This document shows, piece by piece, positions 34,103-63,347 of a stretch of DNA of 64,000 nt. This DNA is from a virus (taxonomy: Duplodnaviria; Heunggongvirae; Uroviricota; Caudoviricetes). The stretch's first letter is position 1, and each line of letters begins with the position of its first letter. Both the position numbers and the translations under genes were made by a program. Below the pieces are notes generated by a model. The model ran no database searches and was not told the DNA's origin. It saw nothing but the letters and a program-made list of their open reading frames with translations. The stretch is from IMG/VR virus record IMGVR_UViG_3300050821_006962, positions 27,133-91,132 of that record. One strand, given 5' to 3'.

Positions 34103-34260
34103 ACGAAATCGTCTACATCGGATGGAAGTGCAACGAGATTCTGATTTACTGGAACGGCGAATATTGGCGCTGGACTCGTTCACCTATGACAAAAGATGAC
34201 CCGCCCCATGTGTTTGAGAAGTTGACCGATGAGTACAAAGAGGGATGGAACCTGCGATGA
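34099..34260 (+). CDS. 53-codon ORF inserted between the polymerase pieces
   Basis: ATGA overlaps at both junctions; MNEIVYIGWKCNEILIYWNGEYWRWTRSPMTKDDPPHVFEKLTDEYKEGWNLR. Confidence 0.4.
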   Translation: MNEIVYIGWKCNEILIYWNGEYWRWTRSPMTKDDPPHVFEKLTDEYKEGWNLR

Positions 34261-42377: not shown

Positions 42378-42688
42378 TTATTGTATCTTGCTCTCAAACG
42401 CCGCAAGAAGGTGAGCCACACTATCATCTTTTCGCGAAGCCGGAGAACTACACGCTGCCGACGAAGAATTCAGATGATTGCATTTGCGGTGGCGGTAAGC
42501 CGGGAGCGACCGGACGCACGTTGATTGCAAACTGCCCGTGCTGCGACGGCATTCAAGGCTTGGTGCAGGAGGCGTGTCCGAAAGGCGTCGACTGCCCTAA
42601 TAAAGCATACATCCCGATGCGAGTGACGCTACCACCGGACACCAAGATGAGGCTTCGATACATCGACACTGTGGAACCTATATGCTAA
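42374..42688 (+). CDS. Cys-rich small protein
   Basis: ORF track. Confidence 0.45.
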   Translation: MIIVSCSQTPQEGEPHYHLFAKPENYTLPTKNSDDCICGGGKPGATGRTLIANCPCCDGIQGLVQEACPKGVDCPNKAYIPMRVTLPPDTKMRLRYIDTVEPIC

Positions 42689-43434
42689 GCGACATCACAA
42701 TCGTCATCCCGACCTTCCACCGCCGAGGTTACTTGAAAGAGTGCTTCCGCGCTCTGGGAGAGAATCTGCCCGAGTGCTCGGTGGTAGTGGCACAAGATGA
42801 CGGCGGCGACTGCACTTATGAGCATAATACGTACTGGACGAAGCTGCCGTACGACTCCGGGCTGACGATGAAGCGCAACTGGGCGGTCAAACTGGTTGAA
42901 ACGAAGTACACACTGATGGGATGCGATGACTTCGACTTCTCCACGCCGGAAGCGCGAAAGACCGTTGATAACATGGACAGCGTACTAACCGTGTTTAAAC
43001 ATGTTGACGTAGTCGCTGGCAGAGTCAATGAGCGTCCTTACGAGGGCTATCTCGAATACGTTCCCGGCGAGTACATTAGAGAACACATGCTCGGCAGTCG
43101 GGGGGTTCCGTGGCTGATGGACCCGGTGTGGCGAGTTGATATCGCCGCAAATTTTTTCCTTGCTCGCACAGAAGTGCTCCGAGAGATACCGTGGGATGAG
43201 AGCATTCGACCCATCGGTGGAGAACACGTAGATTGGTTTCTTGACTTGAAGGCGGCGAACAAGCACGTTGTACTTTTACCCGGTGCGAACATCAACACGC
43301 AGCCGTACGACCCGGCCAAGCAGGACCCGAGGTATAAGGAATTTCGTCGTCGCGCGCTCACGACCGGGCATGCGCTGATGAAGCAGAAGCGGAACATTAA
43401 GAAGTACATCGATTTCAACGGAGGAATATCATGA
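42682..43434 (+). CDS. glycosyltransferase family 2
   Basis: IVIPTFHR...DD...; GT-A N-terminal signature. Confidence 0.55.
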   Translation: MLSDITIVIPTFHRRGYLKECFRALGENLPECSVVVAQDDGGDCTYEHNTYWTKLPYDSGLTMKRNWAVKLVETKYTLMGCDDFDFSTPEARKTVDNMDSVLTVFKHVDVVAGRVNERPYEGYLEYVPGEYIREHMLGSRGVPWLMDPVWRVDIAANFFLARTEVLREIPWDESIRPIGGEHVDWFLDLKAANKHVVLLPGANINTQPYDPAKQDPRYKEFRRRALTTGHALMKQKRNIKKYIDFNGGIS

Positions 43435-43628
43435 AAGTTAAGAAACAGAAGGAACCAAAGCCGATTACGATTGGCTCGGTAGTTCAACTGAAAAGTGGCG
43501 GACCCTTTATGACTGTAGTCGCTGCCGTCTCCACATCGCAAGTTATCTTGACAGTGCTGTGGGCTGGCAACGATGGCCGCATTCAGAAGGCCGACATCGC
43601 CATCCAAGCGCTGCGACTGGTGAAGTGA
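43431..43628 (+). CDS. small hypothetical protein
   Basis: ORF track. Confidence 0.4.
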   Translation: MKVKKQKEPKPITIGSVVQLKSGGPFMTVVAAVSTSQVILTVLWAGNDGRIQKADIAIQALRLVK

Positions 43629-44593
43629 TGGACCTCATACTTTATCACAATGCGTGTCCGGACGGCTGGTGCGCCGCCTACATCTGCAAGCTCAAATATC
43701 CAGAAGCGCAACTGATTCCGCTTAATCACGGACTAGGCGAAGAGGCACTTGATAGTCTCTTCGAAGGTTGCCGCAATAAAGATGTTATCATGGTCGACTA
43801 TTCGCTCCGCACCCGAGAGTTGAACGAGCGGCTGAATTCGGTCGCAAAGTCGTTCCGTATCCTCGACCACCACAAGACCGCGCAAGCCGCGCTGGCTGGC
43901 GCATCGTATGCGACCTTCGACATGAAGCGTTCTGGCGCGGGCCTCGCGTGGGATTATCTCTTCGGAAAAGATTCCCCGGAGATGGCTGATGCCACAGATT
44001 CAGTGAAGGAATATCGTCCGTGGTGGGTCGATTACACAGAAGACCAAGACCTTTGGAACTGGACGCTCGAAGACAGTCAAGAAATCAATGCATACTTAAT
44101 GGTTCAGCCTCGCACCGTTGAAGTATGGAATGAAATTGCAAAAGACCCGGGCGGCAAAGCATCGGCCAGAGCAAAAGGTGTTGGTGTTCGTCAGTACATC
44201 GAATACTACACCCGCTCCGTGGTCGCGGAAGTGCAAGAAGGGCTGTTCGCGTTCTCTTGCGTAAATGATTTCAAGCAGCTTCGCATCGCGGTTCTCAACA
44301 TTCCGTACGCCGGGGTGAGTGAAGCAGGCAACGCGCTCTGCAAAGCGGGCTACCCGGTCGCGCTGCTCTGGTTCGAGCGCGGCGACGGTATGACCACGTT
44401 CTCGCTTCGCGGCGACGGCTCCGTGGATGTGAGTGCAATCGCTAAGTCGTTCGGCGGCGGAGGCCACAACAACGCGGCAGGCTTTCAGCTCAGCGTTGAC
44501 GCAGGTCGAGAACTGGTGGATAGAATCCTTGGACGAGCAAACGCAAAGGCATTTTCCGAAGCTTTAGTAAGCCCGGGAGGCTGCATCAAGTGA
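43628..44593 (+). CDS. DHH-family phosphoesterase (RecJ/NrnA-like)
   Basis: DHH motif RILDHHKT; GGGH-like distal motif. Confidence 0.5.
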   Translation: MDLILYHNACPDGWCAAYICKLKYPEAQLIPLNHGLGEEALDSLFEGCRNKDVIMVDYSLRTRELNERLNSVAKSFRILDHHKTAQAALAGASYATFDMKRSGAGLAWDYLFGKDSPEMADATDSVKEYRPWWVDYTEDQDLWNWTLEDSQEINAYLMVQPRTVEVWNEIAKDPGGKASARAKGVGVRQYIEYYTRSVVAEVQEGLFAFSCVNDFKQLRIAVLNIPYAGVSEAGNALCKAGYPVALLWFERGDGMTTFSLRGDGSVDVSAIAKSFGGGGHNNAAGFQLSVDAGRELVDRILGRANAKAFSEALVSPGGCIK

Positions 44594-45303
44594 GTCAATT
44601 ACTGATTGCTGTTAAAAGTTGCAGAGCTGACCTCGACCGAGGCTGTCACAACGTGATTCGCGCCACGTGGGGCCAGCAGTTCCGTGGGCGCGCCATCGTG
44701 CGGTTCTTCGTGGGTCACACCGCCGACAAATACTTTATGGCGCATCCGGGCGCAAAGGCTCGCACGCTACAAAGCGACGAGGTTGAGATAGACGCGGCGG
44801 ACGACTACGACTCGCTGCCGCACAAGACTCGCGCCATCTGTCACTGGGCGACCGGGAAGAACATCGAGAATATCTTTCTCTGCGACAACGACACGTACGT
44901 TTACCCGCAAAAGTTGTTGACGTGCGGATATAACCGCTACGATTACGCGGGCAAGATTAGCAAGCCGCTCGGGGAGACGTTTGCTTATGATGCGGTCGAC
45001 CGGAGAGGCGTGACCACCCACATGGAGAACTGCTACCCGTGGGCCAGCGGCGGATACGGCTACTTCCTTTCTCGCGATGCCGCATTTTTGATTGCCGATT
45101 CGTATCCGAAGGGCTGGGCGGAAGACCTCTGGGTCGGCCAAGTTCTCGGAAAGGAAATTGCACAAGGCAGCATGCACGGCCTCGACCTGCCAGCGGGCAG
45201 CTATTCGCGGCACTTCCCGGCGCACCAGTACGGACAAGGCTACAGCCCAGAGCTAAAGTGGATGGAGCTGATGCACGCGGCCAATCAGGTGGTGAACGGA
45301 TGA
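44590..45303 (+). CDS. DxD-motif glycosyltransferase (GT31 or Fringe-like)
   Basis: LCDNDTYV. Confidence 0.45.
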   Translation: MSQLLIAVKSCRADLDRGCHNVIRATWGQQFRGRAIVRFFVGHTADKYFMAHPGAKARTLQSDEVEIDAADDYDSLPHKTRAICHWATGKNIENIFLCDNDTYVYPQKLLTCGYNRYDYAGKISKPLGETFAYDAVDRRGVTTHMENCYPWASGGYGYFLSRDAAFLIADSYPKGWAEDLWVGQVLGKEIAQGSMHGLDLPAGSYSRHFPAHQYGQGYSPELKWMELMHAANQVVNG

Positions 45304-45995
45304 AGACCGCGCTACTAGTTATCGCAACGGGCGAGAAGTATCACCAGTATGTGAACCCGCTGCTCGAATCGGCCCGTGAGTTCTTCGTGGAGCACGATGC
45401 GTGGGTGTGGACCGACAGCCTCGCGGCAGCAAGCCAAATCGACGCGAAGTTCGTGCTGACGAAAGAGCCACTCGGGTATCCTAACGAGACTCTTTATAGA
45501 TATCACACTATTTTGCAGCAGCGCTCGCTTCTAGCAAAATATGACTACCTGTTCTATCTCGATGTGGACATGCGGCTGGTCGCGCCTGTGGGCAAGGAAA
45601 TTTTTTCTAACAATATCACGGCCTGCCTTCACCCCGGCTACGTAAACGAGGTCGGCAGTCCGGAGCGTAGACCGGAATCGATGGCCGCAATTTCGTACAA
45701 CGCAAAGAACAAATATTTTTGCGGCGGCTTCAACGGTGGATTTTCCGGCGCGTTCCTCGGAATGGCAGCGGAGCTGGCGTGGTGCATCGACAAAGATACG
45801 GAGAAAGGCGTCTTGGCTGTCTGGCACGACGAAAGCCATCTGAATCGGTACCTGTACGACCATCCACCTTCAAAGATTCTGGACCCGAGTTACTGCTACC
45901 CGGAGGGCGCGGGCGACCACTATCTGAACAAGTGGCGCGCGGCGGGCATCAACCCAACGCCGAAGATTCTGGCGCTTACGAAGGCAGGGCGATGA
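45300..45995 (+). CDS. DxD-motif glycosyltransferase
   Basis: YLDVDMRLV; ATGA-coupled. Confidence 0.45.
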   Translation: MKTALLVIATGEKYHQYVNPLLESAREFFVEHDAWVWTDSLAAASQIDAKFVLTKEPLGYPNETLYRYHTILQQRSLLAKYDYLFYLDVDMRLVAPVGKEIFSNNITACLHPGYVNEVGSPERRPESMAAISYNAKNKYFCGGFNGGFSGAFLGMAAELAWCIDKDTEKGVLAVWHDESHLNRYLYDHPPSKILDPSYCYPEGAGDHYLNKWRAAGINPTPKILALTKAGR

Positions 45996-46657
45996 AGGTT
46001 AGTATCGTAATTCCGTGCTACAATATGCGCGTGTACGTCGGCGAGGCGATTCAGTCCGCGCTGGCGCAGTCGTACCGGGACTTCGAGGTCGTGGTGGTGG
46101 ATGATGGGTCTACCGACGGCTCTCTCGGCGAAATCGAGAACTATCCGGTTAAGATTGTCAACAAGCAGAACGGCGGGCTGGCATCTGCCCGCAACGCAGG
46201 CATCGGGTTTTCCACGGGTGAGCTGATTCTGCCACTGGACGCCGACGACAAGATTGACCCGCACTATCTGATGAAGACGGTGCCGCTGATGTCAAGCGCG
46301 GTCGGTGTGGTCTCGACAGACATGCAGTACTTCGGAACACACACAGACCGACTGCGCCCGACGCACACGACGTTGCAGCAGGTTGTTCAGTACAACGGAA
46401 TGCCTGTATGCTCTCTGATTCGCAAGAAGGCGATTCTGGAAGCAGGCGGCTACAAAAGCATCATGAACGAGGGCTGCGAGGACTGGGAGCTGTGGGTCTC
46501 GATATTGAAGCGCGGCTGGAAGGTCGCGGTCGTGAACGAGCCGCTGTTCTTCTACCGTCGCAAGCCCGTCTCGATGGTCTCGACGATGAACCGAGGAAGG
46601 ATGATTGAAGTGATGAAGACCTTGCACCCAGAACTGAATTGGAGCGGAGTGAGATGA
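45992..46657 (+). CDS. glycosyltransferase family 2
   Basis: IVIPCYN...DDGSTD...DADD. Confidence 0.6.
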   Translation: MKVSIVIPCYNMRVYVGEAIQSALAQSYRDFEVVVVDDGSTDGSLGEIENYPVKIVNKQNGGLASARNAGIGFSTGELILPLDADDKIDPHYLMKTVPLMSSAVGVVSTDMQYFGTHTDRLRPTHTTLQQVVQYNGMPVCSLIRKKAILEAGGYKSIMNEGCEDWELWVSILKRGWKVAVVNEPLFFYRRKPVSMVSTMNRGRMIEVMKTLHPELNWSGVR

Positions 46658-47427
46658 TTACCATACAACTGCTAGGCGGACACGGCAACCAGCTATTCCA
46701 GTGGGCCTTCGGAATGGCGCAGGCGAAGCGGCTCGGCGTGAAGCTACAGCTGAACACGAGCAAGCTCGGCGGCAACCGTCCGTACACGTTGAACCAGTGG
46801 ACGGCGGAGAAGTCGGACGTGCCTTATCAGGTTGAGCCGACCGTGCGGGAGCAAGGCATGCCGTACAACCCGGCGCTCGCGAACAGCATCAAGAACGGCG
46901 ACGTGATTCAAGGCTACTGGCAGACCGAGAAATATTTCCAAGGCATCGAGCAAGAGCTTCTGGCCCTCCGTCCCCGAGTCACCAGCAATGCACTGTTGGA
47001 GAACATCTTCAACACTATGCAGCCTGTCGCGGTTCATGTTCGCCGAGGCGACTACACGAGAGAGCCGCACGCAAGCTTCCACGGTAATCTTGGACTGGAT
47101 TATTACAACAACGCTTTCAATTACATCATCGAGCGAATTCCGCGTCCGACGTTTTTTATATTCAGCGACGACCCGCAGTGGTGTCGGGAGCACTTTACTA
47201 GCGAGGGTCGCCGTTCGGTTGTAATTGTTGAGCCAACCGAAGAGGCATCAGATATCCAAGCGATGTCTCTCTGCAAGCACAACATCATCGCCAACTCGTC
47301 GTTCAGCTGGTGGGGCGCGTACCTCGGAAAGAGAGGGGACCGCGTGGTTGTGGCACCGAAGAATTGGTTTCAATCGAAGGACGAAGACTCTCGGGACATC
47401 GTCCCGGAAAGATGGGTGAGGATATGA
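46654..47427 (+). CDS. alpha-1,2-fucosyltransferase-like (GT11)
   Basis: GGHGNQLFQWAFG, compared with GT11 motif I GGLGNQMFQYA. Confidence 0.5.
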   Translation: MITIQLLGGHGNQLFQWAFGMAQAKRLGVKLQLNTSKLGGNRPYTLNQWTAEKSDVPYQVEPTVREQGMPYNPALANSIKNGDVIQGYWQTEKYFQGIEQELLALRPRVTSNALLENIFNTMQPVAVHVRRGDYTREPHASFHGNLGLDYYNNAFNYIIERIPRPTFFIFSDDPQWCREHFTSEGRRSVVIVEPTEEASDIQAMSLCKHNIIANSSFSWWGAYLGKRGDRVVVAPKNWFQSKDEDSRDIVPERWVRI

Positions 47428-48377
47428 TTGATTTGAACACGTGCAACTTTGTTGTGTACGGCTTCCGCAACAGCTACAACACGTTCGGCCACATTCAGGA
47501 AGCGTGGTACCGCGCGCTGCAATACAAGTTCCCCGACCGGAAGGTCAGCTGGGTCGACGAGATGAACGTGGAAGACGCGGACTTCTCAAACGCTGTGGTG
47601 ATGACCGTCAACGTGGCGAACTTGGTGAAGATGCCGAAGCGCAAGGACGCCTTTTACATCATCCACAATCTGGACGAGACCACCAAGGCAGCCTTCGGCG
47701 GCGACCTGCGTCAGTACTCAGTGATGAACTACGGCATGTACACGAGCACGACCAAGCTGGGACAGGATGACATCGAGGTCGGTTTCGAGACCTATCTGTC
47801 TCTGCAAGGTCACGAGGCGTACACCACCACGATACTCCGCTGGGGCACCGACCTGTTCCCTCACGAGATTGAGGCCAACAAGCCGACCCAAGTTTTTGAC
47901 GAGAGCAAGACAGACGTTAATTTCGTAGGCACGATTTATCACAACGTCCACGACCCGTTCGCGAAGGCCTGCCGGGAGAACGGAATCAAGTTCAACGCTA
48001 TCGGCGGCTTCACGGGCACCGCGCCCGTATCCATCGCGGAGAACGTCCGGCTGGTGCGCGAGTCCTACATGGCTCCTGCTATAGGCGACGTTTACCACGC
48101 GAAGGTCGGTTACATCCCGTGCCGCACCTACAAGAACATTTCGTACGGTCGTTTGCCGCTGACCAACAATAGATACGCGCAGGAGTTCTTCAAAGGTCGG
48201 CTCATCTTCAACGAGGATACATATCAGCTCTTTTACGACGCGAAGAAGGCTTTGCGCGAATACAAGCTCGCGGACCTTCACCAGCTGATGGACGAGGTCG
48301 CGGCCAACCACACGTATCTCACCAAAGTGGACAGTCTGCTGAAAGCGGTCAAACTGACGCAGGAGGCACGCGGATGA
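47424..48377 (+). CDS. hypothetical protein, possible GT-B glycosyltransferase
   Basis: Position in the cluster; weak pattern similarity to T4 beta-glucosyltransferase (DVNFVGTIY...FNAIGGF). Confidence 0.3.
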   Translation: MIDLNTCNFVVYGFRNSYNTFGHIQEAWYRALQYKFPDRKVSWVDEMNVEDADFSNAVVMTVNVANLVKMPKRKDAFYIIHNLDETTKAAFGGDLRQYSVMNYGMYTSTTKLGQDDIEVGFETYLSLQGHEAYTTTILRWGTDLFPHEIEANKPTQVFDESKTDVNFVGTIYHNVHDPFAKACRENGIKFNAIGGFTGTAPVSIAENVRLVRESYMAPAIGDVYHAKVGYIPCRTYKNISYGRLPLTNNRYAQEFFKGRLIFNEDTYQLFYDAKKALREYKLADLHQLMDEVAANHTYLTKVDSLLKAVKLTQEARG

Positions 48378-49213
48378 AGATTCTAGTCCTCGGCTCCGGG
48401 GGTATGCTCGGGCACAAGATGCTCGAACGCTTAAAGCTTCATCATCCCTACGTAGAAGGGGTGTCGAGAAAGAATTTCAAAACCGCAACCAAGGCAAACT
48501 TTGATGCCACTGACAGTGGTAAAGTGATGCAAGTTTTCAACTACTATAAACCGGACGTGGTTGTGAACTGTCTCGGGGTCATCAAGCAAAGAACATCACA
48601 AGGTATGCAGAGCGTGAACGCGCTTCTCCCGCATTTTTTAAGCCGCCAATGTGAGGAGCGGGGCGCATACCTGATTCATTTCAGCAGCGACTGCGTGTTC
48701 TCCGGAAAGAAGGGGATGTACACGGAGAAGGATGCGCCGGACGCCGAAGACCTGTACGGTCTCACGAAAGCGGTGGGAGAAATTACTGATTCGAAGAACA
48801 CGCTGACGCTCCGCACATCAATCGTCGGGCGCGAGCGAGCGAATTATCTGGGTCTGCTCGAATGGTTCCTTCGACAAACGGGCGAAATTCAAGGTCATGA
48901 GAATGCCATCTTCTCAGGAGTCACAACCGAGTGGCTGTCAAGTCTAGTCGCGGAGCTGATATATTGGCCCAAGAGGCTTTCAGGATTGTACAATGTCGCG
49001 ACCGAGCCAGTTTCAAAGTTCGAGCTGCTTAAAATTTTCCAAAGGACTTATAATAAGCAGGGTGTTACTATCATCCCGGTTTCGGAACCGCGATGTGACC
49101 GAAGCCTAGACCCAACAAAGTTTAAACACGATACACTGATATCGATTCCGAGCATTGAGCACATGGTCGAAGGTCAGCGAAATTTGGACAAAGGGAGCGG
49201 ATATGCTATTTGA
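48374..49213 (+). CDS. dTDP-4-dehydrorhamnose reductase (RmlD)-like NAD(P) sugar reductase
   Basis: MKILVLGSGGMLG Rossmann N-terminus; RmlD-like length. Confidence 0.5.
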   Translation: MKILVLGSGGMLGHKMLERLKLHHPYVEGVSRKNFKTATKANFDATDSGKVMQVFNYYKPDVVVNCLGVIKQRTSQGMQSVNALLPHFLSRQCEERGAYLIHFSSDCVFSGKKGMYTEKDAPDAEDLYGLTKAVGEITDSKNTLTLRTSIVGRERANYLGLLEWFLRQTGEIQGHENAIFSGVTTEWLSSLVAELIYWPKRLSGLYNVATEPVSKFELLKIFQRTYNKQGVTIIPVSEPRCDRSLDPTKFKHDTLISIPSIEHMVEGQRNLDKGSGYAI

Positions 49214-50201
49214 CGGAAAGAACATCTTAATCACGGGTGGCACAGGCTCTCTCGGCAGCACGCTGGTGCGTCGACTCCTGTCTGGCGAGAAGGGCACGCC
49301 CGCGAACATCCTTATCCTCTCTCGCGACGAGGCCAAGCAATCGGATTTGAAACAGAAGTTGGATAACAAATCTGAGACCAAGGTTCATTTTCAGATTGGC
49401 GACGTCCGCAACCTCGCCTCCGTCGAGACCGCGATAAAGGGTATGCACATCGTATTCAATGCCGCCGCGTTGAAGCAGGTTCCCTCCTGCGAGTATTTTC
49501 CTTACGAGGCAGTCCAGACCAATATCATCGGAGCAGAGAACATCGTCCGCGCCATCGAGCAGCAGACGACGCGCCCGTTCCCCGTCCAGACAGTAGTCGG
49601 CATTTCTACAGACAAGGCCTGTAAGCCCGTGAACGTGATGGGCATGACAAAGGCGATACAGGAGCGCATCTTCCTCGGAGCGGCGGAACGCTGTCCGATG
49701 ACAAATTTTGTGTGCGTGCGGTACGGTAATGTGCTGGCCTCGCGCGGCTCCGTGATTCCGCTCTTCAAAGAGCAGATTAAGCGCGGCGGGCCTGTAACGG
49801 TCACCACGAATGAGATGACTCGATTTTTGCTGACCTTGGACCAAGCCGTAGACACGGTCTTCGCAGCGGTCGAGGGCGGGCAAAATGGGGAGACCTACAT
49901 CCCACTTATTCCATCGGCGCGCGTGATGGATGTGGCCCACCAGCTCATCGGATGCCGCGATATCAAAATCAAAGAGACTGGCATCCGCCCGGGAGAGAAG
50001 ATTCACGAAATTCTTGTCAGCGAAGAAGAGGTTTCGAGAACCATTCATCGTGGTAGCTACTACGTAATTAAATCGGTGCTTGAAAAACAATCCGGCTATC
50101 AGGCTAGAATGGATGAATTCAGCTCTAAGGACGTCGTAATGGGTTACGACGCCTTGGAAGACTTGCTATGGACCAACGGCTTTATGGAGAGTCATGCTTA
50201 A
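49203..50201 (+). CDS. UDP-sugar 4,6-dehydratase (CapD/PseB/FlaA1-like)
   Basis: ILITGGTGSLG ... typical polysaccharide-biosynthesis CapD family. Confidence 0.55.
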   Translation: MLFDGKNILITGGTGSLGSTLVRRLLSGEKGTPANILILSRDEAKQSDLKQKLDNKSETKVHFQIGDVRNLASVETAIKGMHIVFNAAALKQVPSCEYFPYEAVQTNIIGAENIVRAIEQQTTRPFPVQTVVGISTDKACKPVNVMGMTKAIQERIFLGAAERCPMTNFVCVRYGNVLASRGSVIPLFKEQIKRGGPVTVTTNEMTRFLLTLDQAVDTVFAAVEGGQNGETYIPLIPSARVMDVAHQLIGCRDIKIKETGIRPGEKIHEILVSEEEVSRTIHRGSYYVIKSVLEKQSGYQARMDEFSSKDVVMGYDALEDLLWTNGFMESHA

Positions 50202-50988
50202 AATATTCAGCTTTGGTTCCAATCGTCCGGACTTCATCGGTCTGCAACTGCGCTCGTTCCAGCGCCATCTGAAAGAGGACTTCGAGTTCGTAGTCTTCAA
50301 CAATGCGACCTACGACAACGGTGCGGGCGGAAACTACAACGGCCTCCACGAGCAGGCCAAGGCGCTCGGCATCCGGATGATTGATGTCGTGAAGGACCCC
50401 GGATTGGCGGAGCGCTGCCAGAAGATTGAGCTGAGCTGCCCGCTGTTTAATCCTCAAGGCTTGTATTCGAACGCCAACGTGGCGCACGCGTACGCGCTCT
50501 GCTGGGCGTGGGAGAACCACATCTCGAAAGAGCGCCAGCCGATTGCCATCTTCGACTCGGATGTCTTTCTGGTTGAGCCAGTGAGCCTGACCGAGATGAT
50601 GCTCCCTCACGTGATGCTCAACGTCCCGGACGGCAAGACTCACCAGCAAGACGGGCGCGTCTTCCGCTACATGTGGCCGACGTTCGTCGTGATGGATATG
50701 GCGCGGCTGCCGGACCCGGAAACCATGAACTGGTGGTGCGGCAGGGTGGAGAACACGCCCGTCGACGTGGGCGGGCAGACCTATCACTACTTCCAAGCGC
50801 ACCCGGACTTGGATGTTATTTCGGCTCGGAAGCTTCACCACACCGAGTTCAGCACCGATGAATTCTACTTGACAAAGGGCGACCAGTGTGCTACAGTACT
50901 ACACTACCGCTCCGGCAGCAACTGGGACCACCGCAGCCGAGAGTTCCACCAACAGAAAACCGAATGGCTGAAAGCGAGGATTGGATGA
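50194..50988 (+). CDS. hypothetical protein (possible glycosyltransferase, FDSDVF)
   Basis: ORF track. Confidence 0.35.
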   Translation: MLKIFSFGSNRPDFIGLQLRSFQRHLKEDFEFVVFNNATYDNGAGGNYNGLHEQAKALGIRMIDVVKDPGLAERCQKIELSCPLFNPQGLYSNANVAHAYALCWAWENHISKERQPIAIFDSDVFLVEPVSLTEMMLPHVMLNVPDGKTHQQDGRVFRYMWPTFVVMDMARLPDPETMNWWCGRVENTPVDVGGQTYHYFQAHPDLDVISARKLHHTEFSTDEFYLTKGDQCATVLHYRSGSNWDHRSREFHQQKTEWLKARIG

Positions 50989-51623
50989 GCGAAAAGATGT
51001 CCTTTGAAAACGCCCCCGGCTGCCACAGTGGGTCTCGGCTGGACGAGTTTTGCGCCATCATGCTTAACTTCAAGCACGGCGGCACCTACGTCGACATCGG
51101 CTCGGCGCATTCCAAGTTCCACAATAACTCGCACTTCCTCGACACGAAGCTCGGGTGGACCGGGTTATGCATCGAACTCGATAGTCAGTACAACAGCAGC
51201 TACACCGACCGGATAGGCTGCACGTATGTCAACGGTGATGCGACAAAGCTGGACTACGCCGAAGCGTTCAAGATGCTGGGAATGCCGAGGTCGATAGATT
51301 TCTTATCTCTCGATGTGGACGTGCTGGATTTGGAAGTCGCCAAGCTGGTGCTCAACACCGACTATCGCTTCAAGGTCATCGGCATCGAGCACGACGCGTA
51401 TCAGCACGGCGACCTGTATCGCGCGCCTCAAAGAGAATTTCTTTTGAGCAAGGGGTACGCGTTGGTTTGCTCCGACGTCTTTGTGCGCCATCCGGATTTC
51501 ATAAACTGCCCGTTCGAAGACTGGTACTTGGACCCGCAGCAGTTCGACAGCGACGTGATAGCGAAGGTGGAAAGCGATGCGTGCTATCCGGAAGATATTA
51601 TAGCGAGGCTAAATGGCCGTTAA
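50985..51623 (+). CDS. FkbM-family SAM-dependent methyltransferase
   Basis: GGTYVDIGSAHS. Confidence 0.5.
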   Translation: MSEKMSFENAPGCHSGSRLDEFCAIMLNFKHGGTYVDIGSAHSKFHNNSHFLDTKLGWTGLCIELDSQYNSSYTDRIGCTYVNGDATKLDYAEAFKMLGMPRSIDFLSLDVDVLDLEVAKLVLNTDYRFKVIGIEHDAYQHGDLYRAPQREFLLSKGYALVCSDVFVRHPDFINCPFEDWYLDPQQFDSDVIAKVESDACYPEDIIARLNGR

Positions 51624-52149
51624 GAAATCTTGGAGTCAGGTCGGTCAGGACTTATTTGCGCTGGAAAACTCAGGCGGAAATCAGACGTTCTTGGATATCG
51701 GGTGCATGGAGCCGTTCAGAGATAACAACACTTACATTTTAGACCGCGCAGGCTGGAAGGGTCTAGCGGTCGATTTTGAAAATTTGTTCATATCGACTTG
51801 GAATCAGTACCGAGCATGCCCCGCTATTTGTGCGAACGCGCTGAACGTTGATTGGCGTCACGAGCTTACGTCGCGCGGCTTACCGCTCGAAATTGGCTAC
51901 CTGTCTTTGGATTTATACGGCGAGGAGCTGGACGTGTTACACAATCTTGTGGCGGCGGGCGTTTCATTTCGCTGCGCCACTGTGGAGCACGACAGCATGG
52001 GCATCAAACTGGACCGCCGAGACGCGATTCGAGAGTTCATGCTTTCGCAGGGATACACGCTCGCGGTACCGGACGTGCTATCTCCGTCTTGCGTTATAAA
52101 TGAAGTAGAAGTAGGCAAGAGACCTTTTGAGGATTGGTGGACACGATGA
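51613..52149 (+). CDS. FkbM-family methyltransferase (second copy)
   Basis: GQDLF...FLDIGC. Confidence 0.5.
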   Translation: MAVKKSWSQVGQDLFALENSGGNQTFLDIGCMEPFRDNNTYILDRAGWKGLAVDFENLFISTWNQYRACPAICANALNVDWRHELTSRGLPLEIGYLSLDLYGEELDVLHNLVAAGVSFRCATVEHDSMGIKLDRRDAIREFMLSQGYTLAVPDVLSPSCVINEVEVGKRPFEDWWTR

Positions 52150-53132
52150 GCGGAAAAATAGGAATTTTTCTACCGGGGCTGAACGGCGACATTATGAGCG
52201 CGATGTCGGTGCTCAAATACAAAGACACGCTGTGGCCCGGGAAGGAAGTGGTTTGGTTCTGCGGAGAGCGATTCCGCGAGGTGTTGAACCACAACGATGC
52301 GATAGCCGAAGTTCGGCACTGGCCGGAAGGCTGGAAGCTGCCAGAGCGCTGCGTGTTGGAGAATCAGAGGATAGCCTCGGGCGAGTCCAAAGATTTGCCG
52401 TGGGCCGACTTTAGCATCTTGCTGGACAGCGAGAACCGTCTAAATGCCCGCAAGCATGAGTTTGAATCGACCAAAGATTTGGACGAAGGTTTCTTTCCCA
52501 CGCCTTGGATGATGAGTCTCGAACAGCGGCACGGGATTGATTATCCTAACATATCGCGAAAGGTGTTCCGCGCCGACTCGTCGTGGGAGTGGCACCCGTA
52601 TCTCGGATTTCTGGATGAGGAGCGCGAGGCGGTGAGAGCGTTCGCCGCTACGTTCCCGCACCCGAAGACGGTGATGCTGGAGACCAATTTCACGTCCGGC
52701 AAATCGCACTGGGACGATGACCTGACCCGGCAGACGATGGCGCTGTGCCGCCAGAAGCTCGGCAAGTGCAACTTCATTTTCGCGTGCGCGGGCGATTACT
52801 CACGATTCACCGACGATGCGGGCGTGCTTAACTGCAACAACTTCACGGTGAGACAGACCGCGCTCGTCAACAACTACGCCGATTTGTTCATCGGGATATC
52901 CAGCGGCATTTCGGTAGCGACCAGCTGTTGGGGTAACAAACCTACTCCGAAGCTGCAATACTGCGGCTCGTTCATTATGAGCACGTACTCGCTGGCGAAC
53001 GGGCCGATGGAGCTGGTGGTCGCTGACCCTCCGGGCCAGAACCCGCCGGAGCACGAGCGCCGCTTCCCGCCGAAGGCGAATCACCGCGCGGAGTACATAA
53101 GCAGACTGACCAGCATGCTGGGGAATCTATGA
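52134..53132 (+). CDS. GT9-like (heptosyltransferase-fold) glycosyltransferase
   Basis: C-terminal LFIGISSGISVATSC, compared with the GT9 motif DSGxxHLA. Confidence 0.4.
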   Translation: MVDTMSGKIGIFLPGLNGDIMSAMSVLKYKDTLWPGKEVVWFCGERFREVLNHNDAIAEVRHWPEGWKLPERCVLENQRIASGESKDLPWADFSILLDSENRLNARKHEFESTKDLDEGFFPTPWMMSLEQRHGIDYPNISRKVFRADSSWEWHPYLGFLDEEREAVRAFAATFPHPKTVMLETNFTSGKSHWDDDLTRQTMALCRQKLGKCNFIFACAGDYSRFTDDAGVLNCNNFTVRQTALVNNYADLFIGISSGISVATSCWGNKPTPKLQYCGSFIMSTYSLANGPMELVVADPPGQNPPEHERRFPPKANHRAEYISRLTSMLGNL

Positions 53133-53362
53133 AGATTACGGTAGGAAACCTGATTGACCAGCTGACCATCGCCAACATCCGAATCTGGATGGCGGAGGAT
53201 ATAAAGAGGAAGCCGGACGCTACCGACAAGCAGATTGCGGATGCGACCCGAGTGACCAACGTCGCCAACCAACAGCGGAACGACCTGATTCAGGCGATAG
53301 ACGAGGAGCTGGGCCAAAAATCCTACAAACAGGGAACGACGAAAATATATGGTAAAGATTAA
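53129..53362 (+). CDS. hypothetical protein
   Basis: ORF track. Confidence 0.4.
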   Translation: MKITVGNLIDQLTIANIRIWMAEDIKRKPDATDKQIADATRVTNVANQQRNDLIQAIDEELGQKSYKQGTTKIYGKD

Positions 53363-54554
53363 CAAGTGCCGAATCTGCGGTAACACGAATCTCCTCTGCG
53401 TACTTGATTTGGGCGAGCAAGTGCTCACAGGCGTATTCCCTAAGACAAGGGACGCCAAGATTACGAAGGGGCCGCTGCGCTTGGTAAAGTGCATCGGCAT
53501 GTGCGGTTTGCTGCAACTGGAACACTCGTACGACTCTTCTGAGATGTACGGAGAGAATTACGGGTATCGTTCCGGTTTGAACCCGAGCATGGTAGCCCAC
53601 CTGCAAGCAAAGGTCGCAAGAATTTTGAAGCAGACCCACCTGCTCCCGGGCGACATCGTCGTAGATATCGGCAGCAACGACGGGACCACGCTGCGAGCTT
53701 ATCCGGCCTTCCTGACTCGTATGGGCTTTGACCCGGCGGGTGCCAAGTTCGCCGAGTATTATCCGGAAGGCGTTCAGCTGGTCTCTGATTTCTTTTCCGC
53801 TGAGCTGCTGAAAAAGTACGGCAGAAGGAAGGTATCCGTTATCACGTCCTTCTCCATGTTCTACGACTTAGAAGACCCTACTCGCTTTATGAGGGATATC
53901 TACGAGGTCTTGGCTGATGATGGGATATGGGTGTTCGAACAAAGCTACATGCCTTCTATGCTGCAAACAGGCTCTTACGATACCGTCTGTCACGAGCATC
54001 TGGAATTCTACGCCTTAAAACAAATCGCGTGGATGGCAGACTTGGTCGGGTTCGTAATTCGTGATGTCGAACTCAATGACGTGAACGGCGGCAGTATTTC
54101 GGTCACTCTTTCCAAATACGGAAAAGAATCCGAGATGGTAAAAATACTTCTTGATAAAGAAGGGGAAGCCGGATATAATTATTTTGAACCCTTCTTATCC
54201 TTCGCAAAAAGAGCGGAGGAATCGAAGCTCGCCTTGCTCGCCTTTTTGCGCGATGCTCAACAGAATAACAAGACGGTGATGGCGCTCGGCGCGTCCACCA
54301 AGGGCAACGTCCTGCTCCAGTACTGCGGGCTGACCGAAAAAGATATCTCTTGCATCGGAGAGGTCAACTGTGATAAGGTAGGTTCTTATACGCCCGGTAC
54401 CGGGATACCAATCGTTTCGGAGGCCGAGGTGCTCGCCGCGAAGCCGGACTTCCTGATTGTCCTGCCGTGGCATTTCAAGAAGTTCTTTTTGGAGAACTGG
54501 AAGTACGCGAACCAAAATTTGATTTTTCCTTTACCTAAATTGGAGACTACATGA
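53349..54554 (+). CDS. C-methyltransferase-type SAM methyltransferase with an N-terminal Zn ribbon
   Basis: CRICGN...C...CGLLQ Zn domain plus [12 protein letters not shown] motif; architecture of sugar C-methyltransferases. Confidence 0.5.
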
Positions 54555-55579
54555 AAGCGCTGATTACAGGAATATCCGGGCAAGACGGCAGCTACCTCGC
54601 GGAGCTTCTGCTCTCCAAGGGCTACGAGGTTCACGGCGTGCTGCGTCGCGCTTCCAGCATTAACACGGAGCGCATCAAGCACATCCTGCCGGACCTGCAC
54701 ACCCACCTCGGTGACCTGTCCGATAGCCAATCAATTGAAAATGTTTTCGCGAAGCATACATTCGAAGAAGTCTATAATTTGGGAGCACAGAGCGACGTAC
54801 GCGCCAGCTTTGATGTTCCAGAGTACACAGGCGATGTCACCGGGCTAGGCGCGCTGCGACTCTTGGAGCTGTGCCGCGCGCACCGCAGCAAGTTTTACCA
54901 AGCGAGCAGCTCGGAACTATTCGGGAAGGCGCTGGAGACTCCGCAGTCCGAGAAGACTCCGTTCTATCCTCGCAGCCCTTACGGAGTCGCAAAGCAGTAC
55001 GCGTTCTGGTCGACCGTGAACTACCGCGAGAGCTATGACATGTTCGCGTGCAACGGTATCCTCTTCAACCACGAGAGTCCTCGCCGTGGCACTGGGTTCG
55101 TGACCCAGAAGATTACAAAGGCAGCGGTGAATATTTATCGAAAGAAACAGCTAGAACTGCGTTTGGGCAATTTGGATGCGCGCCGCGATTGGGGATATGC
55201 CAAGGATTACGTGGAAGGAATGTGGATGATGATGCAGCAGCCGAAGCCGGATGACTTCGTGCTCGCGACCGGGGAGACCCACTCCATCCGTGAATTTCTC
55301 GATGAGGCCTTTGACTATCTTCACATCGACTGGCATCAGCACGTCGCGATAGACCCGGAGCTTTATCGCCCTGCCGAAGTTGACCTGCTGCTCGGCGATG
55401 CATCGAAAGCGAAGCGCGTGCTCGGCTGGGAGCCGAAGGTGAAATTCAAGGAACTGGTCCGACTGATGGTGGATGCAGAACTATTCGGAGAAAGGCAGTT
55501 TTGTTCTTATTGTGGCGCAGGCACAGGTAGATTTCGACGATTCGGGGAAGGGACTTGTCCCAAGTGTGAAAAACAATGA
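54551..55579 (+). CDS. gmd: GDP-mannose 4,6-dehydratase
   Basis: [29 protein letters not shown] is the canonical Gmd N-terminus. Confidence 0.7.
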
Positions 55580-56205
55580 ACTTTTACCTCATTTCCGACA
55601 CGCACTTCAAGCATGACGCAATGAAGACATACTGCGTACGCCCATCGAATTTTACGGAGCTGACACATAAAAATGTCATGAATACCGTGACCGAGAAGGA
55701 CACCCTGATTCACCTCGGCGATGTCGGCATCGGCAAGCACGACGCGTGGGAGTGGATAATCCGCGAATGGCCCTGCCGTAAGATTCTAATTCGAGGCAAC
55801 CACGACCGCAATCACTCGTGCTCGTGGTGGATGGAGCACGGCTTCGATTTTGCGTGCGATTCTATGGTCTTCCGCAAGGTGCTGCTCACGCATGAGCCAG
55901 CAAATGCGGTCATCAAATCGGATGGACATCGTCCATACGGCTCTCTTGACGCTGGTCTGCCAGAAGGTTGTGAATTGAATGTGCATGGTCACCTCCACAA
56001 TATTTGGGATGGATTTCATCGTCCAGAACGAATCGAACGAGACAAGGAATTGCTCGGTATCGATTTTACGAAGCGATTGAAACACTCATGGCAGCGTCTT
56101 TTCGCACTCGAATACACCAGCTACGCGCCCGTTGAGTTTAACAAGTTCATTTCACATCCGGAACGATATCAGGCGACCGGGCCAAAAACACATGCCGGAA
56201 TATAA
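55576..56205 (+). CDS. calcineurin-like metallophosphoesterase
   Basis: ISDTHF...GDVG...GNHD. Confidence 0.55.
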
Positions 56206-60154: not shown

Positions 60155-60400
60155 ATGAGCGTGGCACAAGATTTGTTTCTCGGTCTGGTCGGCTCGGTCG
60201 AAGCAGGCATCTTGACACCAGAAGAGGCGGTGACCGAACTCGCCGAGTTGAAGCAGGAGTACGGTTTCTATTCGGAGTACACGCTCGAAGACTTCCAACG
60301 GCTTCGAACAAATTATCTCTCCAAGCTGGAATCGGAGGAAGATAACGATTATTACGAAGACGATTTCAGATACGACGAGGATGAAGAGGACGACGAATGA
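60155..60400 (+). CDS. acidic small protein
   Basis: AGGAGG RBS. Confidence 0.5.
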   Translation: MSVAQDLFLGLVGSVEAGILTPEEAVTELAELKQEYGFYSEYTLEDFQRLRTNYLSKLESEEDNDYYEDDFRYDEDEEDDE

Positions 60401-62983: not shown

Positions 62984-63177
62984 AAAATCTTTACCTCGTA
63001 ACTCTGTCTTGTGTCCGTCATTACGGCAACGGCCACTTCGAACGCGATACAGAGCCAGCAATGAAGGTCGTTGCAGCAAACGGCGATGAGGCTGTGGAGA
63101 AGGCGAAAAAGAGAGTTGGTGAATCATCGAAGCCTGCGCTGGAAGGTTTGCAATTGATGGTATCAGGAGTCGAGTGA
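62980..63177 (+). CDS. hypothetical protein
   Basis: GTG start, coupled. Confidence 0.35.
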   Translation: MKNLYLVTLSCVRHYGNGHFERDTEPAMKVVAANGDEAVEKAKKRVGESSKPALEGLQLMVSGVE

Positions 63178-63347
63178 TGTCCAACATCGCAAAGAAATAT
63201 CTCGTCGTGGGCGGTGTGGTCGTGGAAGCCGTCAAGTCAGAGGGAGGCGGCTTCTACGAACTCACTGTGGTCGAGACAGGCGATAAGCAGCGGTACCTCG
63301 CCGACGTTTTCGAAGAGGTAGCAAAACCAGTGGAGGAGAAGTCATGA
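63177..63347 (+). CDS. hypothetical small protein
   Basis: TGATG overlap. Confidence 0.35.
   Translation: MSNIAKKYLVVGGVVVEAVKSEGGGFYELTVVETGDKQRYLADVFEEVAKPVEEKS

Follow-up and report, generated by a model that had tools for sequence, protein, structure and literature searches.

A phage operon encoding soluble enzymes for a methylated deoxy-sugar oligosaccharide, possibly for decoration of virion proteins

The window (the whole 64-kb stretch of phage DNA that was analysed) contains, at positions 42682-56205, 18 open reading frames (g1 to g18), all on the + strand, that form one run of genes with overlapping starts and stops. The 17 internal junctions all overlap, by 1 to 14 nt each, which bears out the claim of an earlier, sequence-only reading that at least 16 consecutive genes are translationally coupled here. 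The chain of overlapping genes begins upstream of this run, at position 41209, and the unbroken series comprises 20 overlapping junctions. None of the island reading frames was interrupted, translational coupling extends into the phage genes on either flank, and identical gene models were obtained independently on an ENA metagenome contig. Promoter-like and terminator-like sites were not overrepresented along the operon. Within the genome, the island falls in the replication/lysis arm and away from the structural genes, and the endolysin gene comes after the operon's last gene, g18. The context of the island is that of a phage: the window contains 29 tRNAs and a GH108 endolysin, and contigs of relatives carry probable terminase, portal, scaffold and major capsid genes, assigned from size, order and composition alone. 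This uncultured phage, with a genome of about 100 kb, carries a real, selected operon of 11 to 13 kb, the cargo of which is a set of soluble enzymes for a methylated deoxy-sugar oligosaccharide.

Seven glycosyltransferases were recognized, five by sequence (g1, g4, g5, g6 and g7) and two by predicted structure (g8 and g14). The product of g1 (42682..43434) is a GT-A enzyme of the GT2/GT12-like type (beta-1,4-GalNAc-transferase-like). The protein alone scored weakly (PF00535, E of 0.017; TIGR04440, E of 2e-5); PF00535 was present in 28 of 92 homologues, and the family profile matched B4GALNT1 (GT12; PDB 9h6j) with an E value of 4e-22. The GT31 gene g4 (44590..45303; Galactosyl_T/Fringe-like; PF01762, 1.2e-12; PF02434, 4e-4) is the island gene with the highest constancy and the most duplications in the lineage. 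A homologue of GT6 alpha-1,3-Gal/GalNAc-transferases is encoded by g5 (45300..45995; PF03414, 1.3e-27); it retains the DVD metal motif, and its best solved relative in the PDB is BoGT6a (5e-32), followed by the human ABO transferase (3e-23). Next to it lie a GT2 gene, g6 (45992..46657; PF00535, 7.6e-30), and g7 (46654..47427; PF01531, 1.9e-30), a homologue of GT11 alpha-1,2-fucosyltransferases; in many cyanophages, g7 homologues adjoin GT6. Predicted structures supported g8 (47424..48377) as a compact GT-B (GT4-like) glycosyltransferase and g14 (52146..53132), the family of which has no Pfam model, as one with the GT9 fold (heptosyltransferase/TibC-like). Of the seven or more glycosyltransferases counted earlier, seven are thus supported, but g11 (50194..50988) is not. 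This conserved protein has 650 homologues, is syntenic within jumbo-phage cassettes and matched nothing in Pfam or the PDB. It has GT-A-like motifs (DFEFVVFNNA and FDSDVF), but hhalign probabilities stayed below 5%, and it is only a possible GT-A glycosyltransferase.

The genes for sugar-nucleotide enzymes and methyltransferases are interspersed with these. The sole reductase of the island, g9 (48374..49213), is an RmlD-like NAD(P)H 4-ketoreductase (PF04321, 5.6e-26; PDB 2ggs, 3.6e-18; TIGR01214, 91 bits, which is under the cut-off). The adjacent g10 (49203..50201; PF02719, 3e-92) had been called CapD-like; like the RmlD-like call, this was supported, and it could be refined to a homologue of CapE/FnlA-type UDP-GlcNAc 4,6-dehydratase/5-epimerases. 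Its best PDB matches were CapE (3vvb, 4e-68) and 4j2o (1e-67), PseB (2gn4) scored worse than both, and a Met occupies the position aligned to the Met of the CapE MxxxK motif. Two further enzymes were confirmed as previously described, namely a Zn-ribbon NDP-hexose 3-C-methyltransferase of the TylC3/TcaB9 family, g16 (53349..54554; PF08484, 6.5e-40; PF08421, 3.9e-16; TylC3-type 4rv9, 4e-39; TcaB9, 4e-35), and a GDP-mannose 4,6-dehydratase (Gmd), g17 (54551..55579; TIGR01472, 459.5 bits against a cut-off of 415; PF16363, 5e-132), which ends in a short CxxC...CxxC tail as read from the sequence. The two proposed FkbM O-methyltransferases held up in part: g12 (50985..51623), a probable sugar O-methyltransferase, and g13 (51613..52149) are FkbM-like, SAM-methyltransferase-type paralogues with 29% identity, but g12 had no direct Pfam match. 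Their link to FkbM is indirect because it is based on a homologue of g12 (44% identity) annotated as "FkbM family methyltransferase" in DSL-LC02 and on a PF05050 match (1.3e-4) in one of five aligned members of the g12/g13 family.

The operon also contains two small proteins, g2 (43431..43628; DUF2158; PF09926, 4.6e-8), which adjoins g1 in relatives too, and g15 (53129..53362; DUF4254; PF14063, 9.8e-11), which had no match in the PDB. In a synteny comparison, g15 always adjoined the C-methyltransferase gene or lay within about 2 kb of it, and it is among the best-conserved cassette genes (57-82% identity across GC contents of 0.29-0.53). The DHH/DHHA1 phosphoesterase g3 (43628..44593; PF02272, 3.6e-9; phrog_4771, 3.6e-67) and the metallophosphoesterase g18 (55576..56205; PF12850, 2.7e-8) were correctly identified in the sequence-only reading, the gene inventory of which stands in its essentials by profile, PDB and predicted-structure matches, but they are not island genes. 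Both occur in relatives with no or a minimal island, and g3 is missing from a relative with a full island (L213). Hence both belong to the phage backbone: g3 lies within the operon without belonging to the glycan cassette, and g18 is the operon's last gene.

The island is selected and resident, not a fresh capture from a host. Its dN/dS against a relative (L029) was 0.05-0.22, compared with 0.11 for the backbone gene UvrD; its GC content equals that of the phage, and its GC3 is 0.68, versus 0.72 for backbone genes. Four lineage members, with GC contents of 0.43-0.54, carry it in colinear form, and cassette GC follows that of the resident genome over a range of 0.29 to 0.55. Among relatives, the locus is hypervariable: some have no island, some only GT31, and others carry glycosyltransferases alone or a set of the fucose/perosamine type. 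In L028, GT31 is the sole glycosyltransferase; L030 pairs it with g1 alone, and L031 has five GT31 paralogues.

Similar cassettes were found in other phages. The core order GT6, GT11, g11, FkbM-like, GT9-fold, C-methyltransferase, DUF4254 and Gmd recurs in unrelated jumbo phages (GC of 25-37%), and the core is partly present in a T4-like cyanophage. The phages that keep this order have GC contents of 0.25-0.54 and contigs of 41-428 kb, some with tubulin and UvsW; therefore, their hosts and host envelopes must differ. An island of 10.5 kb in Synechococcus phage DSL-LC02 is homologous in part, and genes of such a kind number 24 in P-SSM2 (PMC1079782), 13 in S-SCSM1 (PMC9602691) and 22, including 13 glycosyltransferases, in S-SCSM2R (PMC12801897). 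Because of these similar cassettes in other lineages, this kind of cassette is already known, and the statement that it is not standard phage equipment was too strong.

At the family level, Gmd converts GDP-mannose to GDP-4-keto-6-deoxymannose, its neighbor g16 is a sugar 3-C-methyltransferase, and g10 and g9 correspond to steps one and two on the way from UDP-GlcNAc to UDP-L-RhaNAc, L-PneNAc or L-FucNAc. The soluble glycosyltransferases comprise, at the same level, GT31, GT2/GT12-like, GT2, GT11, GT6, GT-B and GT9-fold enzymes. We infer the sugar products, since the island has no GDP-fucose synthase and g9, its one reductase, must either serve more than one route or be complemented by host enzymes. 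The island would be a self-contained cytoplasmic glycan assembly line, expressed during the lytic cycle as a section of a single long phage operon. Its enzymes would build and then cap a hetero-oligosaccharide that may contain a fucose-type sugar or 3-C-methyl-6-deoxyhexose, an L-6-deoxy-HexNAc, Gal/GalNAc and O-methyl groups, and the GT11 and GT6 step would mimic the final steps of histo-blood-group A/B synthesis. A virion protein encoded by the phage itself, such as a capsid decoration, tail or fibre protein, may be the acceptor, and cassette exchange at one locus would then give related phages different glycan coats.

We tentatively favor this glycosylation of virion proteins over remodelling of the host envelope. 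No membrane-spanning segment was found in any island protein, and no initiating phosphoglycosyltransferase, flippase, polymerase, ABC transporter or ligase was found here or among the scanned or catalogued genes of variant islands. Soluble enzymes without export families point toward a phage-intrinsic cytoplasmic acceptor, as does the core order conserved in phages of differing hosts. The missing membrane proteins are only suggestive because glycosyltransferases of O-antigen synthesis, too, are soluble or peripheral. Against a virion acceptor, phages with a full, a minimal or no island share a probable major capsid protein with 75-98% identity and, mostly, equal length, and the island is not located with the structural genes. 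Moreover, GT9, GT11/GT6, CapE/FnlA and Gmd enzymes are classical for LPS, O-antigen and capsule synthesis too.

A role in the host envelope, which together with virion glycosylation makes up the two serious candidates, both already named as alternatives in the sequence-only reading, is somewhat unlikely. The enzymes would extend or cap lipid-linked O-antigen, LPS-core or exopolysaccharide intermediates of the host at the cytoplasmic face of the membrane, with export through the host's initiating transferase, flippase and ligase, and the altered surface of the infected or pseudolysogenic cell would lead to superinfection exclusion, receptor masking or changed grazing. The nearest characterized families (GT9 heptosyltransferase fold, CapE/FnlA, Gmd and bacterial GT6) favor it, and host "LPS genes" is the standard interpretation of homologous cyanophage clusters (PMC1079782, PMC9602691, PMC12801897). 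The locus varies like an O-antigen locus, and a non-lytic state is conceivable because relative L115 has an integrase-family gene downstream (10650-11576). However, neither the island nor the scanned or catalogued variant-island genes include an initiating transferase, Wzx/Wzy, Wzm/Wzt, WaaL or a GtrA/B-like membrane protein, and the colinear cassette serves phages whose hosts and acceptor structures must be very different. We know of no experiment showing that a lytic phage uses some ten cassette genes to rebuild the LPS of its host.

Transfer of the glycan to some other cytoplasmic acceptor, be it a host protein, a phage protein that is not structural, a small molecule or a glycoconjugate that is secreted, is unlikely, and so is a role for part of the set in merely rerouting the sugar-nucleotide pools of the host. 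The solubility of every enzyme and the small conserved proteins g2 and g15 would fit, but there is no positive sign of such an acceptor, and seven glycosyltransferases with capping methyltransferases suggest an ordered oligosaccharide rather than metabolic rerouting.

Assembly of the glycan on a modified base of the phage DNA, blocking restriction or CRISPR, as proposed in the sequence-only reading, is disfavored and seems very improbable. Seven glycosyltransferases are, to our knowledge, more than any known DNA glycan requires. Replication genes adjoin the island, an S-SCSM1 homologue of an island enzyme is annotated as a "DNA beta-glucosyltransferase," and phage enzymes akin to LPS/teichoic-acid glycosyltransferases add mono- to trisaccharides, heptose included, to 5hmC (bioRxiv 10.1101/2023.12.21.572611). 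Known pathways, however, cluster with a "handle" enzyme (bioRxiv 10.1101/2023.12.21.572611; PMC13326640), whereas no ThyA-like protein, cytosine C5-methyltransferase or TET/5mYOX was found among the ORFs scanned in the window, nor any base-handle enzyme in one scanned 308-aa ORF downstream of it. The dNMP kinase and HD protein said to lie nearby were not found near the island, and the DHH and metallophosphoesterase genes, the former also cited as a pointer, belong to the backbone. Restriction-site avoidance was extreme: the 64-kb window lacks GATC altogether, against an expectation of about 290 on each strand, and ten or more 6-bp palindromes do not occur in it at all. Relatives show such avoidance whether their island is full, minimal or lacking, so the phage DNA is exposed to restriction. 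Finally, a recently captured, silent or decaying host O-antigen fragment, which the bacterial polysaccharide-gene homologues of many island genes might suggest, is effectively refuted by the intact, coupled frames, the phage-like GC and GC3, the low dN/dS and the colinearity in four lineage members.

Glycosylation of virion proteins, the reading tentatively favored here, has parallels elsewhere. In the virus-encoded multi-glycosyltransferase systems resolved by experiment, as far as we know, the glycan decorates the virion. It is found on the virion in chloroviruses (PMC5408694), on virion fibrils, with L-RhaNAc included, in Megavirinae (PMC10117803) and, according to the summary given in PMC12619734, on the capsid and tail tube in mycobacteriophage. 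Unlike the mycobacteriophage capsid, the probable major capsid proteins of this lineage have no C-terminal tag of that type. Close relatives of this phage differ in their alleles at one locus, much as clades of the Megavirinae differ in their glycosylation cassettes (PMC10117803).

The glycan-building island comprises 18 ORFs (g1 to g18) on the plus strand of the window, from 42682 to 56205, with every junction overlapping by 1 to 14 nt. The chain of overlapping genes starts at 41209, three genes 5' of g1, and the same gene models were called independently on an ENA metagenome contig. Promoter-like and terminator-like sites across 40.5 to 58.5 kb showed no excess over chance. Therefore, given the overlapping junctions and the chance level of such sites, the region reads as one long operon, whose end lies 146 nt ahead of a GH108 endolysin gene. 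The location is viral and the island is co-oriented with viral genes, with PrimPol, DNA polymerase, UvrD and PD-(D/E)XK nuclease genes upstream and the endolysin gene downstream. The carrier gene content in the window further includes a T5 A1-like protein. Its family-A DNA polymerase, split or interrupted, occupies two ORFs (32873-34102 and 34245-35372, plus strand) whose products match consecutive parts of phrog_17, with a 53-aa ORF (34099-34260) between them.

The island gave no match by megablast against 50,697 phage records, and the carrier is without a close cultured relative. In IMG/VR, 31 related loci were found, and the lineage is represented there by contigs of about 100 kb with the backbone order of the window. 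On one 101-kb relative contig, a terminase, a portal, a scaffold, a major capsid protein and a fibre are probably encoded in the opposite arm, these assignments being based on size, order and composition only. A 201-aa protein (879-1484, minus strand), 91% identical in the relative L121, was far more conserved than the replication proteins, and in a relative it lies about 3.5 kb ahead of the probable terminase. The Arg/Cys-rich ORF that overlaps it (702-1559, plus strand) is probably spurious, as is the ORF at 62120-63235 (minus strand). Among genome contigs, the PD-(D/E)XK protein matched only two, both of them phage contigs of this lineage (L119, CABMCB010000010.1, and L120, CABMCB010000059.1; 57.7 and 99.9 kb, 73% and 58% identity). 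Both were deposited within the MAG "uncultured archaeon isolate LFW-28", probably a binning artefact. One full-island relative, L115, carries a Phage_integrase tyrosine recombinase (10650-11576, 4.7e-12) about 5 kb 3' of the window-equivalent end.

The window also contains 29 tRNA genes in one array (2499-8582, minus strand), in which most amino acids are represented; several ORFs listed within it are artefacts overlapping tRNAs. Inside the array lies a candidate phage-encoded RNase P RNA (5510-5799, minus strand; Rfam RF00010, bacterial class A), whose score of 102 bits lies just above the gathering score of 100 (E value of 4.7e-30), with 290 nt against a 367-position model. An RtcB-type RNA ligase gene (60397-61704, plus strand; phrog_1075, 5.7e-126) is not at the syntenic position in the closest relative, L029, and an RtcB probe of IMG/VR retrieved 80 phages, all of them unrelated and none matching a contig already placed in the lineage. 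No exact-protein match was on record for RtcB or for the two probably spurious ORFs. Together, RtcB, the tRNA array and the RNase P match suggest a theme of tRNA maintenance or repair.

The sequence-only reading had listed at least seven glycosyltransferases, Gmd, a reductase/dehydratase pair and three methyltransferases in the island, and this inventory was essentially borne out by profile, PDB and predicted-structure comparisons. Seven glycosyltransferases are supported. Four were assigned directly by Pfam: g4 (GT31, Galactosyl_T/Fringe), g5 (GT6), g6 (GT2) and g7 (GT11, PF01531, 106.6 bits). The match of g5 to PF03414 reached 96.9 bits with the DVD metal motif kept, and its nearest enzymes were Bacteroides BoGT6a and the human ABO transferases. 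Only g6 separates the GT6 and GT11 genes, which are adjacent in many cyanophages. For g1, PF00535 was found in 28 of 92 homologues, and the family profile matched human B4GALNT1 (GT12) at 4e-22. Six ORFs had neither a Pfam nor a PHROG match, and half of these turned out to be glycosyltransferases. Searches of PHROGs and Pfam at E values up to 10 returned nothing useful for g8, g11, g12, g13 and g14, and the family profiles of these proteins had no significant match among PDB sequences. According to its predicted structure, g14 adopts a GT9-type GT-B fold. It had no Pfam match and reached TIGR02193 only at an E value of 0.0045 over 44 residues; it is filed here as a predicted GT9-fold protein and not as a GT9 member. 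There are no heptose-nucleotide genes in the island, and use of ADP-heptose by g14 is not supported. The g11 family has 650 homologues; its likeness to GT-A enzymes was limited to motifs, and hhalign against g1, g4, g5 and g6 gave motif-level matches with probabilities below 5%.

Clustered with the glycosyltransferases is a sugar-nucleotide set: Gmd, a CapE-type dehydratase, an RmlD-like reductase, a 3-C-methyltransferase and two FkbM-like methyltransferases. The g17 product is a bona fide Gmd that exceeds the equivalog cut-off. It bears a C-terminal CxxC...CxxC tail of about 25 residues (window ~55500-55579), past the region aligned to the Gmd models and to the homologue in L029, where both alignments stop at residue ~311. 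The g16 product is a sugar 3-C-methyltransferase of the TylC3/TcaB9 type, with PF08421 (N-terminal, Zn-binding), PF13489 (SAM) and PF08484 (C-terminal Methyltransf_14) all above cut-offs and a match to PDB 4rv9 at 4e-39 over residues 4-381. The best PDB matches of g10 were CapE and an FnlA-type enzyme, and a Met replaces the SDR Tyr in alignment with the Met of the CapE Ser-Met-Lys triad; its score was under the NCBIfam equivalog cut-offs. The RmlD-like g9 adjoins g10. The paralogues g12 and g13 belong to a family in whose alignment one member matches the FkbM domain at 1.3e-4, and g12 is 44% identical to a protein of the cyanophage DSL-LC02 annotated as an FkbM family methyltransferase. The remaining products are g15 (DUF4254, with no PDB match and no informative literature found), g2 (DUF2158), g3 (DHH/DHHA1) and g18 (metallophosphoesterase). 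Neither GDP-fucose synthase (Fcl/GMER) nor UDP-GlcNAc 2-epimerase was found in the island. Fcl is present in DSL-LC02, S-SCSM1 and probably the relative L031. In a jumbo-phage locus (L210), the g9-g10 homologues are preceded, at a distance of about 1.5 kb, by an Epimerase_2 gene.

These families point to a likely chemistry. By family-level assignment, Gmd makes GDP-4-keto-6-deoxymannose, which the 3-C-methyltransferase and a reduction, by g9, a host enzyme or Gmd itself, could turn into a GDP-3-C-methyl-6-deoxyhexose. The g10-g9 pair may yield a UDP-2-acetamido-2,6-dideoxy-L-hexose of the L-RhaNAc or L-PneNAc type. The GT31, GT12-like, GT2, GT11 and GT6 enzymes would then build a Gal/GalNAc/HexNAc backbone, attach an alpha-1,2-deoxyhexose to it and cap it with alpha-1,3-Gal(NAc), in the manner of A/B antigen synthesis. 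Further residues might be added by the GT-B and GT9-fold enzymes, and O-methyl groups by the FkbM-like enzymes.

Comparison with the relatives revealed a hypervariable locus, bounded by the conserved p199/p104 genes on one side and g18/GH108 on the other, with an allelic series at this one position. It contained no glycosyltransferase genes in L014, L016, L021, L022, L026 and L027, a single divergent GT31 in L028 and L030 (with g1 in L030), and glycosyltransferases only (g1, GT31, GT6, GT2 and GT11) in L032. In L031, a different set of the fucose/perosamine type was present: five GT31 paralogues, GT11, GT10, GT2, Gmd, an Fcl-like reductase and a DegT aminotransferase. The full colinear island was found in L029/L213, L212 and L214. 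The g3 gene occurs in phages with no or a minimal island and is missing from the full-island L213, and g18 is also found without the island. Both are backbone genes, and their distribution does not follow the island. On this ground, the idea that they process sugar phosphates or nucleotides for the pathway was rejected. GIY-YIG (NUMOD3) homing-endonuclease genes are inserted inside or beside the cassettes of relatives and jumbo phages at L032 7867-8382, L209 3069-3902 and L210 20841-20975, and are a possible vehicle for cassette exchange. Island genes were 62-87% identical to those of L029 with a dN/dS of 0.05-0.22 (UvrD, 77% and 0.11), and their GC and GC3 matched the backbone. These values exclude a recent, decaying capture from a host.

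The cassette extends beyond this lineage. The g14 family was found on contigs of 41-428 kb with a GC content of 0.25-0.37, some of which are marked as jumbo phages by a TubZ-like tubulin and UvsW. In 11 of 12 IMG/VR loci and on two further contigs, the g14 homologue was accompanied by most of g5, g7, g11, g12, g16, g15 and g17, usually in the gene order of the window. The Gmd, C-methyltransferase and DUF4254 genes are close together in nearly all cassettes, the g9-g10 pair is also present on one jumbo-phage contig, and each cassette has the GC content of the genome in which it resides. Homologues of g7, g8, g14, g16, g15 and g17 were found in L216 (IMGVR_UViG_GVMAG-M-3300005662-28_000001; GC 0.28), labelled a giant-virus bin, which may be a mis-binned phage contig or a true copy of the cassette in an NCLDV.

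On what is the glycan built? By analogy with characterized viruses, we tentatively favour a virion protein or another phage protein. An all-soluble, self-contained pathway that is retained in phages of differing host range and varied by the exchange of cassettes matches three systems resolved by experiment: chlorovirus capsids (PMC5408694), the capsid and tail tube of mycobacteriophages (as summarised in PMC12619734), and Megavirinae fibrils, including L-RhaNAc (PMC10117803). Two observations speak against a virion target: the island sits in the replication/lysis arm, and the probable capsid protein keeps 75-98% identity and, for the most part, the same length whatever the island state. A C-terminal glycosylation tag of the mycobacteriophage style was not found on this near-invariant protein. 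The probable major-capsid gene is 1023 nt long in most members, and in some (L147, L151, L164, L175-L179 and others) the match extends over 1190-1440 nt, which suggests an insertion (an intron, an intein or an extra domain) in the conserved protein. More speculatively, the core cassette (GT6, GT11, g11, FkbM-like, GT9-fold, 3-C-methyltransferase, DUF4254, Gmd, optionally joined by the CapE/RmlD pair) could be a horizontally mobile, self-contained virion-glycosylation system common to unrelated aquatic phages, namely phages of ~100 kb, jumbo phages that encode tubulin, and cyanophages of the T4-like type. It might produce a capped branched-sugar coat, perhaps with a blood-group-like terminal epitope, diversified by allelic cassettes at one locus. 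If true, this would be the first description of a general virion-glycan system in phages other than those of Actinobacteria.

A somewhat less favoured but plausible alternative is that the glycan is destined for the host envelope. Enzymes of these families typically make LPS, O-antigen and capsule, and the clusters of cyanophages are usually interpreted in this sense (PMC1079782, PMC9602691, PMC12801897). However, no initiating, flipping, polymerising, exporting or ligating protein was found in the island or in the variant-island genes examined. The 18 proteins gave no Pfam or NCBIfam match to an initiating phosphoglycosyltransferase of the WecA/WbaP type and contain no transmembrane segment, and a flippase and polymerase, an ABC transporter and a ligase were absent from the island and from the variant-island genes scanned or catalogued. 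Moreover, the same ordered cassette occurs in phages that must infect very different hosts. A temperate serotype converter of the gtrABC type was rejected since there are no membrane proteins and no GtrA/GtrB-like or serotype-specific families. Other cytoplasmic acceptors take up the rest of the probability.

The sequence-only reading had also proposed that the glycan is built on a modified DNA base. The known pathways of glycan hypermodification depend on a ThyA homologue or a C5-methyltransferase with 5mYOX, usually clustered with the glycosyltransferases (10.1101/2023.12.21.572611; PMC13326640). Among window ORFs searched against Pfam or PHROGs, and in one 308-aa ORF searched downstream in a relative, no base-handle enzyme (ThyA-homologue hydroxymethylase, 5hoC synthase, or C5-methyltransferase with 5mYOX/TET) was detected, the ~24-kb structural arm of the ~101-kb genome being outside this search. 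The dNMP kinase and HD protein taken to point to base modification were not found near the island, and the DHH protein, cited to the same end, belongs to the backbone. In its predicted structure, g8 superposed on T4 AGT and BGT no better than on generic GT4 enzymes. The genome instead avoids restriction sites to an extreme extent. GATC is absent from the 64-kb window (about 290 expected per strand, z = -34), as are CCGCGG, CTCGAG, GAGCTC, CGGCCG, CTGCAG, GGCGCC, TGGCCA, GCCGGC, GTGCAC, CGATCG, GGATCC and AGATCT; for GATC and at least ten of these 6-bp palindromes, z runs from -5 to -34. Comparable avoidance, of overlapping but different site sets, was seen in relatives (L008, L010, L012-L014, L016, L021, L026-L032, L115, L121 and L128), whether their island is full, minimal or absent, and one close relative has 373 GATC sites. 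Therefore, by this indirect evidence, the phage DNA is under restriction pressure, which blanket modification would relieve, and the avoidance suggests hosts rich in type II restriction systems. Overall, a glycan on the phage DNA is highly improbable.

If the virion is the target, phage particles of lakes and oceans would carry self-made glycan coats, which would bear on adsorption, grazing, aggregation and the interpretation of viral "auxiliary metabolic genes". The core cassette in unrelated phages and the allelic series provide comparable test cases for a virion, host-envelope or DNA target. Several enzymes may be of biocatalytic interest: the GDP-sugar 3-C-methyltransferase with DUF4254, the Pfam-less GT9-fold family and the DxD-type GT6.

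Among known systems, blood-group-mimicking O-antigen loci such as that of E. coli O86 use GT11 and GT6 after a Gal-transferase, and in 3-C-methyl-sugar LPS (Coxiella virenose), Gmd, a C-methyltransferase and a reductase lead to a branched 6-deoxyhexose. Bacterial loci of these kinds contain wzx/wzy or ABC transporters and an initiating transferase, or rely on ones encoded in the same genome, whereas the island is phage-borne and is without a transporter or an initiating transferase. In mycobacteriophage systems, a methyltransferase accompanies the glycosyltransferases, and presence or absence differs between relatives. These sets have 2-4 genes, belong to phages of Actinobacteria and place glycans on C-terminal extensions of capsid and tail-tube proteins; the capsid protein of the lineage here has no such extension. 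Their glycosyltransferases decorate virion proteins (Freeman et al. 2023, as cited in PMC12619734). Giant-virus clusters (Megavirinae fibrils and the chlorovirus PBCV-1 capsid), compared by shared families, likewise combine sugar-nucleotide pathways, soluble glycosyltransferases and sugar methyltransferases, in clade-specific cassettes of 6-33 genes. Their products are rare sugars of bacterial type, among them L-RhaNAc and L-QuiNAc made from UDP-GlcNAc, and Gmd is found in chloroviruses (PMC10117803, PMC5408694). Their hosts are eukaryotic and their acceptor was shown by experiment. DNA sugar-hypermodification clusters (T-even glucosyl-hmC, MT/5mYOX- or ThyS-linked, arabinosyl-5hoC) also contain GT-A and GT-B enzymes near replication genes. 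Their glycosyltransferases derive from LPS or teichoic-acid enzymes and add 1-3 sugars, with the base-handle enzyme in or beside the cluster (10.1101/2023.12.21.572611; PMC13326640).

Similar to the island are the "LPS / cell-wall" clusters of cyanomyoviruses (P-SSM2, S-SCSM1, S-SCSM2R and DSL-LC02), which are large, occur in lytic-type phages and contain Gmd and epimerases/reductases together with neighbouring GT11 and GT6 genes, methyltransferases and further glycosyltransferases; export genes are absent. GT6-GT11 pairs are common among cyanomyoviruses, and the T4-like DSL-LC02 shares six families with the island (g17, 54%; g16, 47%; g12, 44%; g8, 30%; g7, 31%; g5, 33%). To our knowledge, phage "LPS" or glycan clusters have been catalogued since 2005 and a function has never been demonstrated. 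Published accounts of the cyanophage clusters likewise give their function as unknown (PMC1079782, PMC9602691, PMC12801897). The carrier here differs in being an unrelated uncultured ~100-kb lineage with PrimPol, a split DNA polymerase, a T5 A1-like protein and 29 tRNAs. Its island adds GT9-fold, DUF4254, CapE/RmlD, GT31 and GT12-like genes and is without GDP-fucose synthase; the wcaG-type RNA annotated inside the S-SCSM1 island was not found in the window by an Rfam scan. Such a gene set, described in the sequence-only reading as outside standard phage equipment, is thus less rare than supposed, given the similar cyanomyovirus clusters, the partial homologue in DSL-LC02 and the core cassette in jumbo phages. 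Virus-borne glycan biosynthesis clusters are already known as a kind, and a partial homologue is present in a published cyanophage genome. Within the literature searched, what appears to be new is the carrier lineage, the allelic series at a single locus and the conserved core (GT9-fold, 3-C-methyltransferase, DUF4254, Gmd, FkbM-like, GT6 and GT11) spread over unrelated phages.
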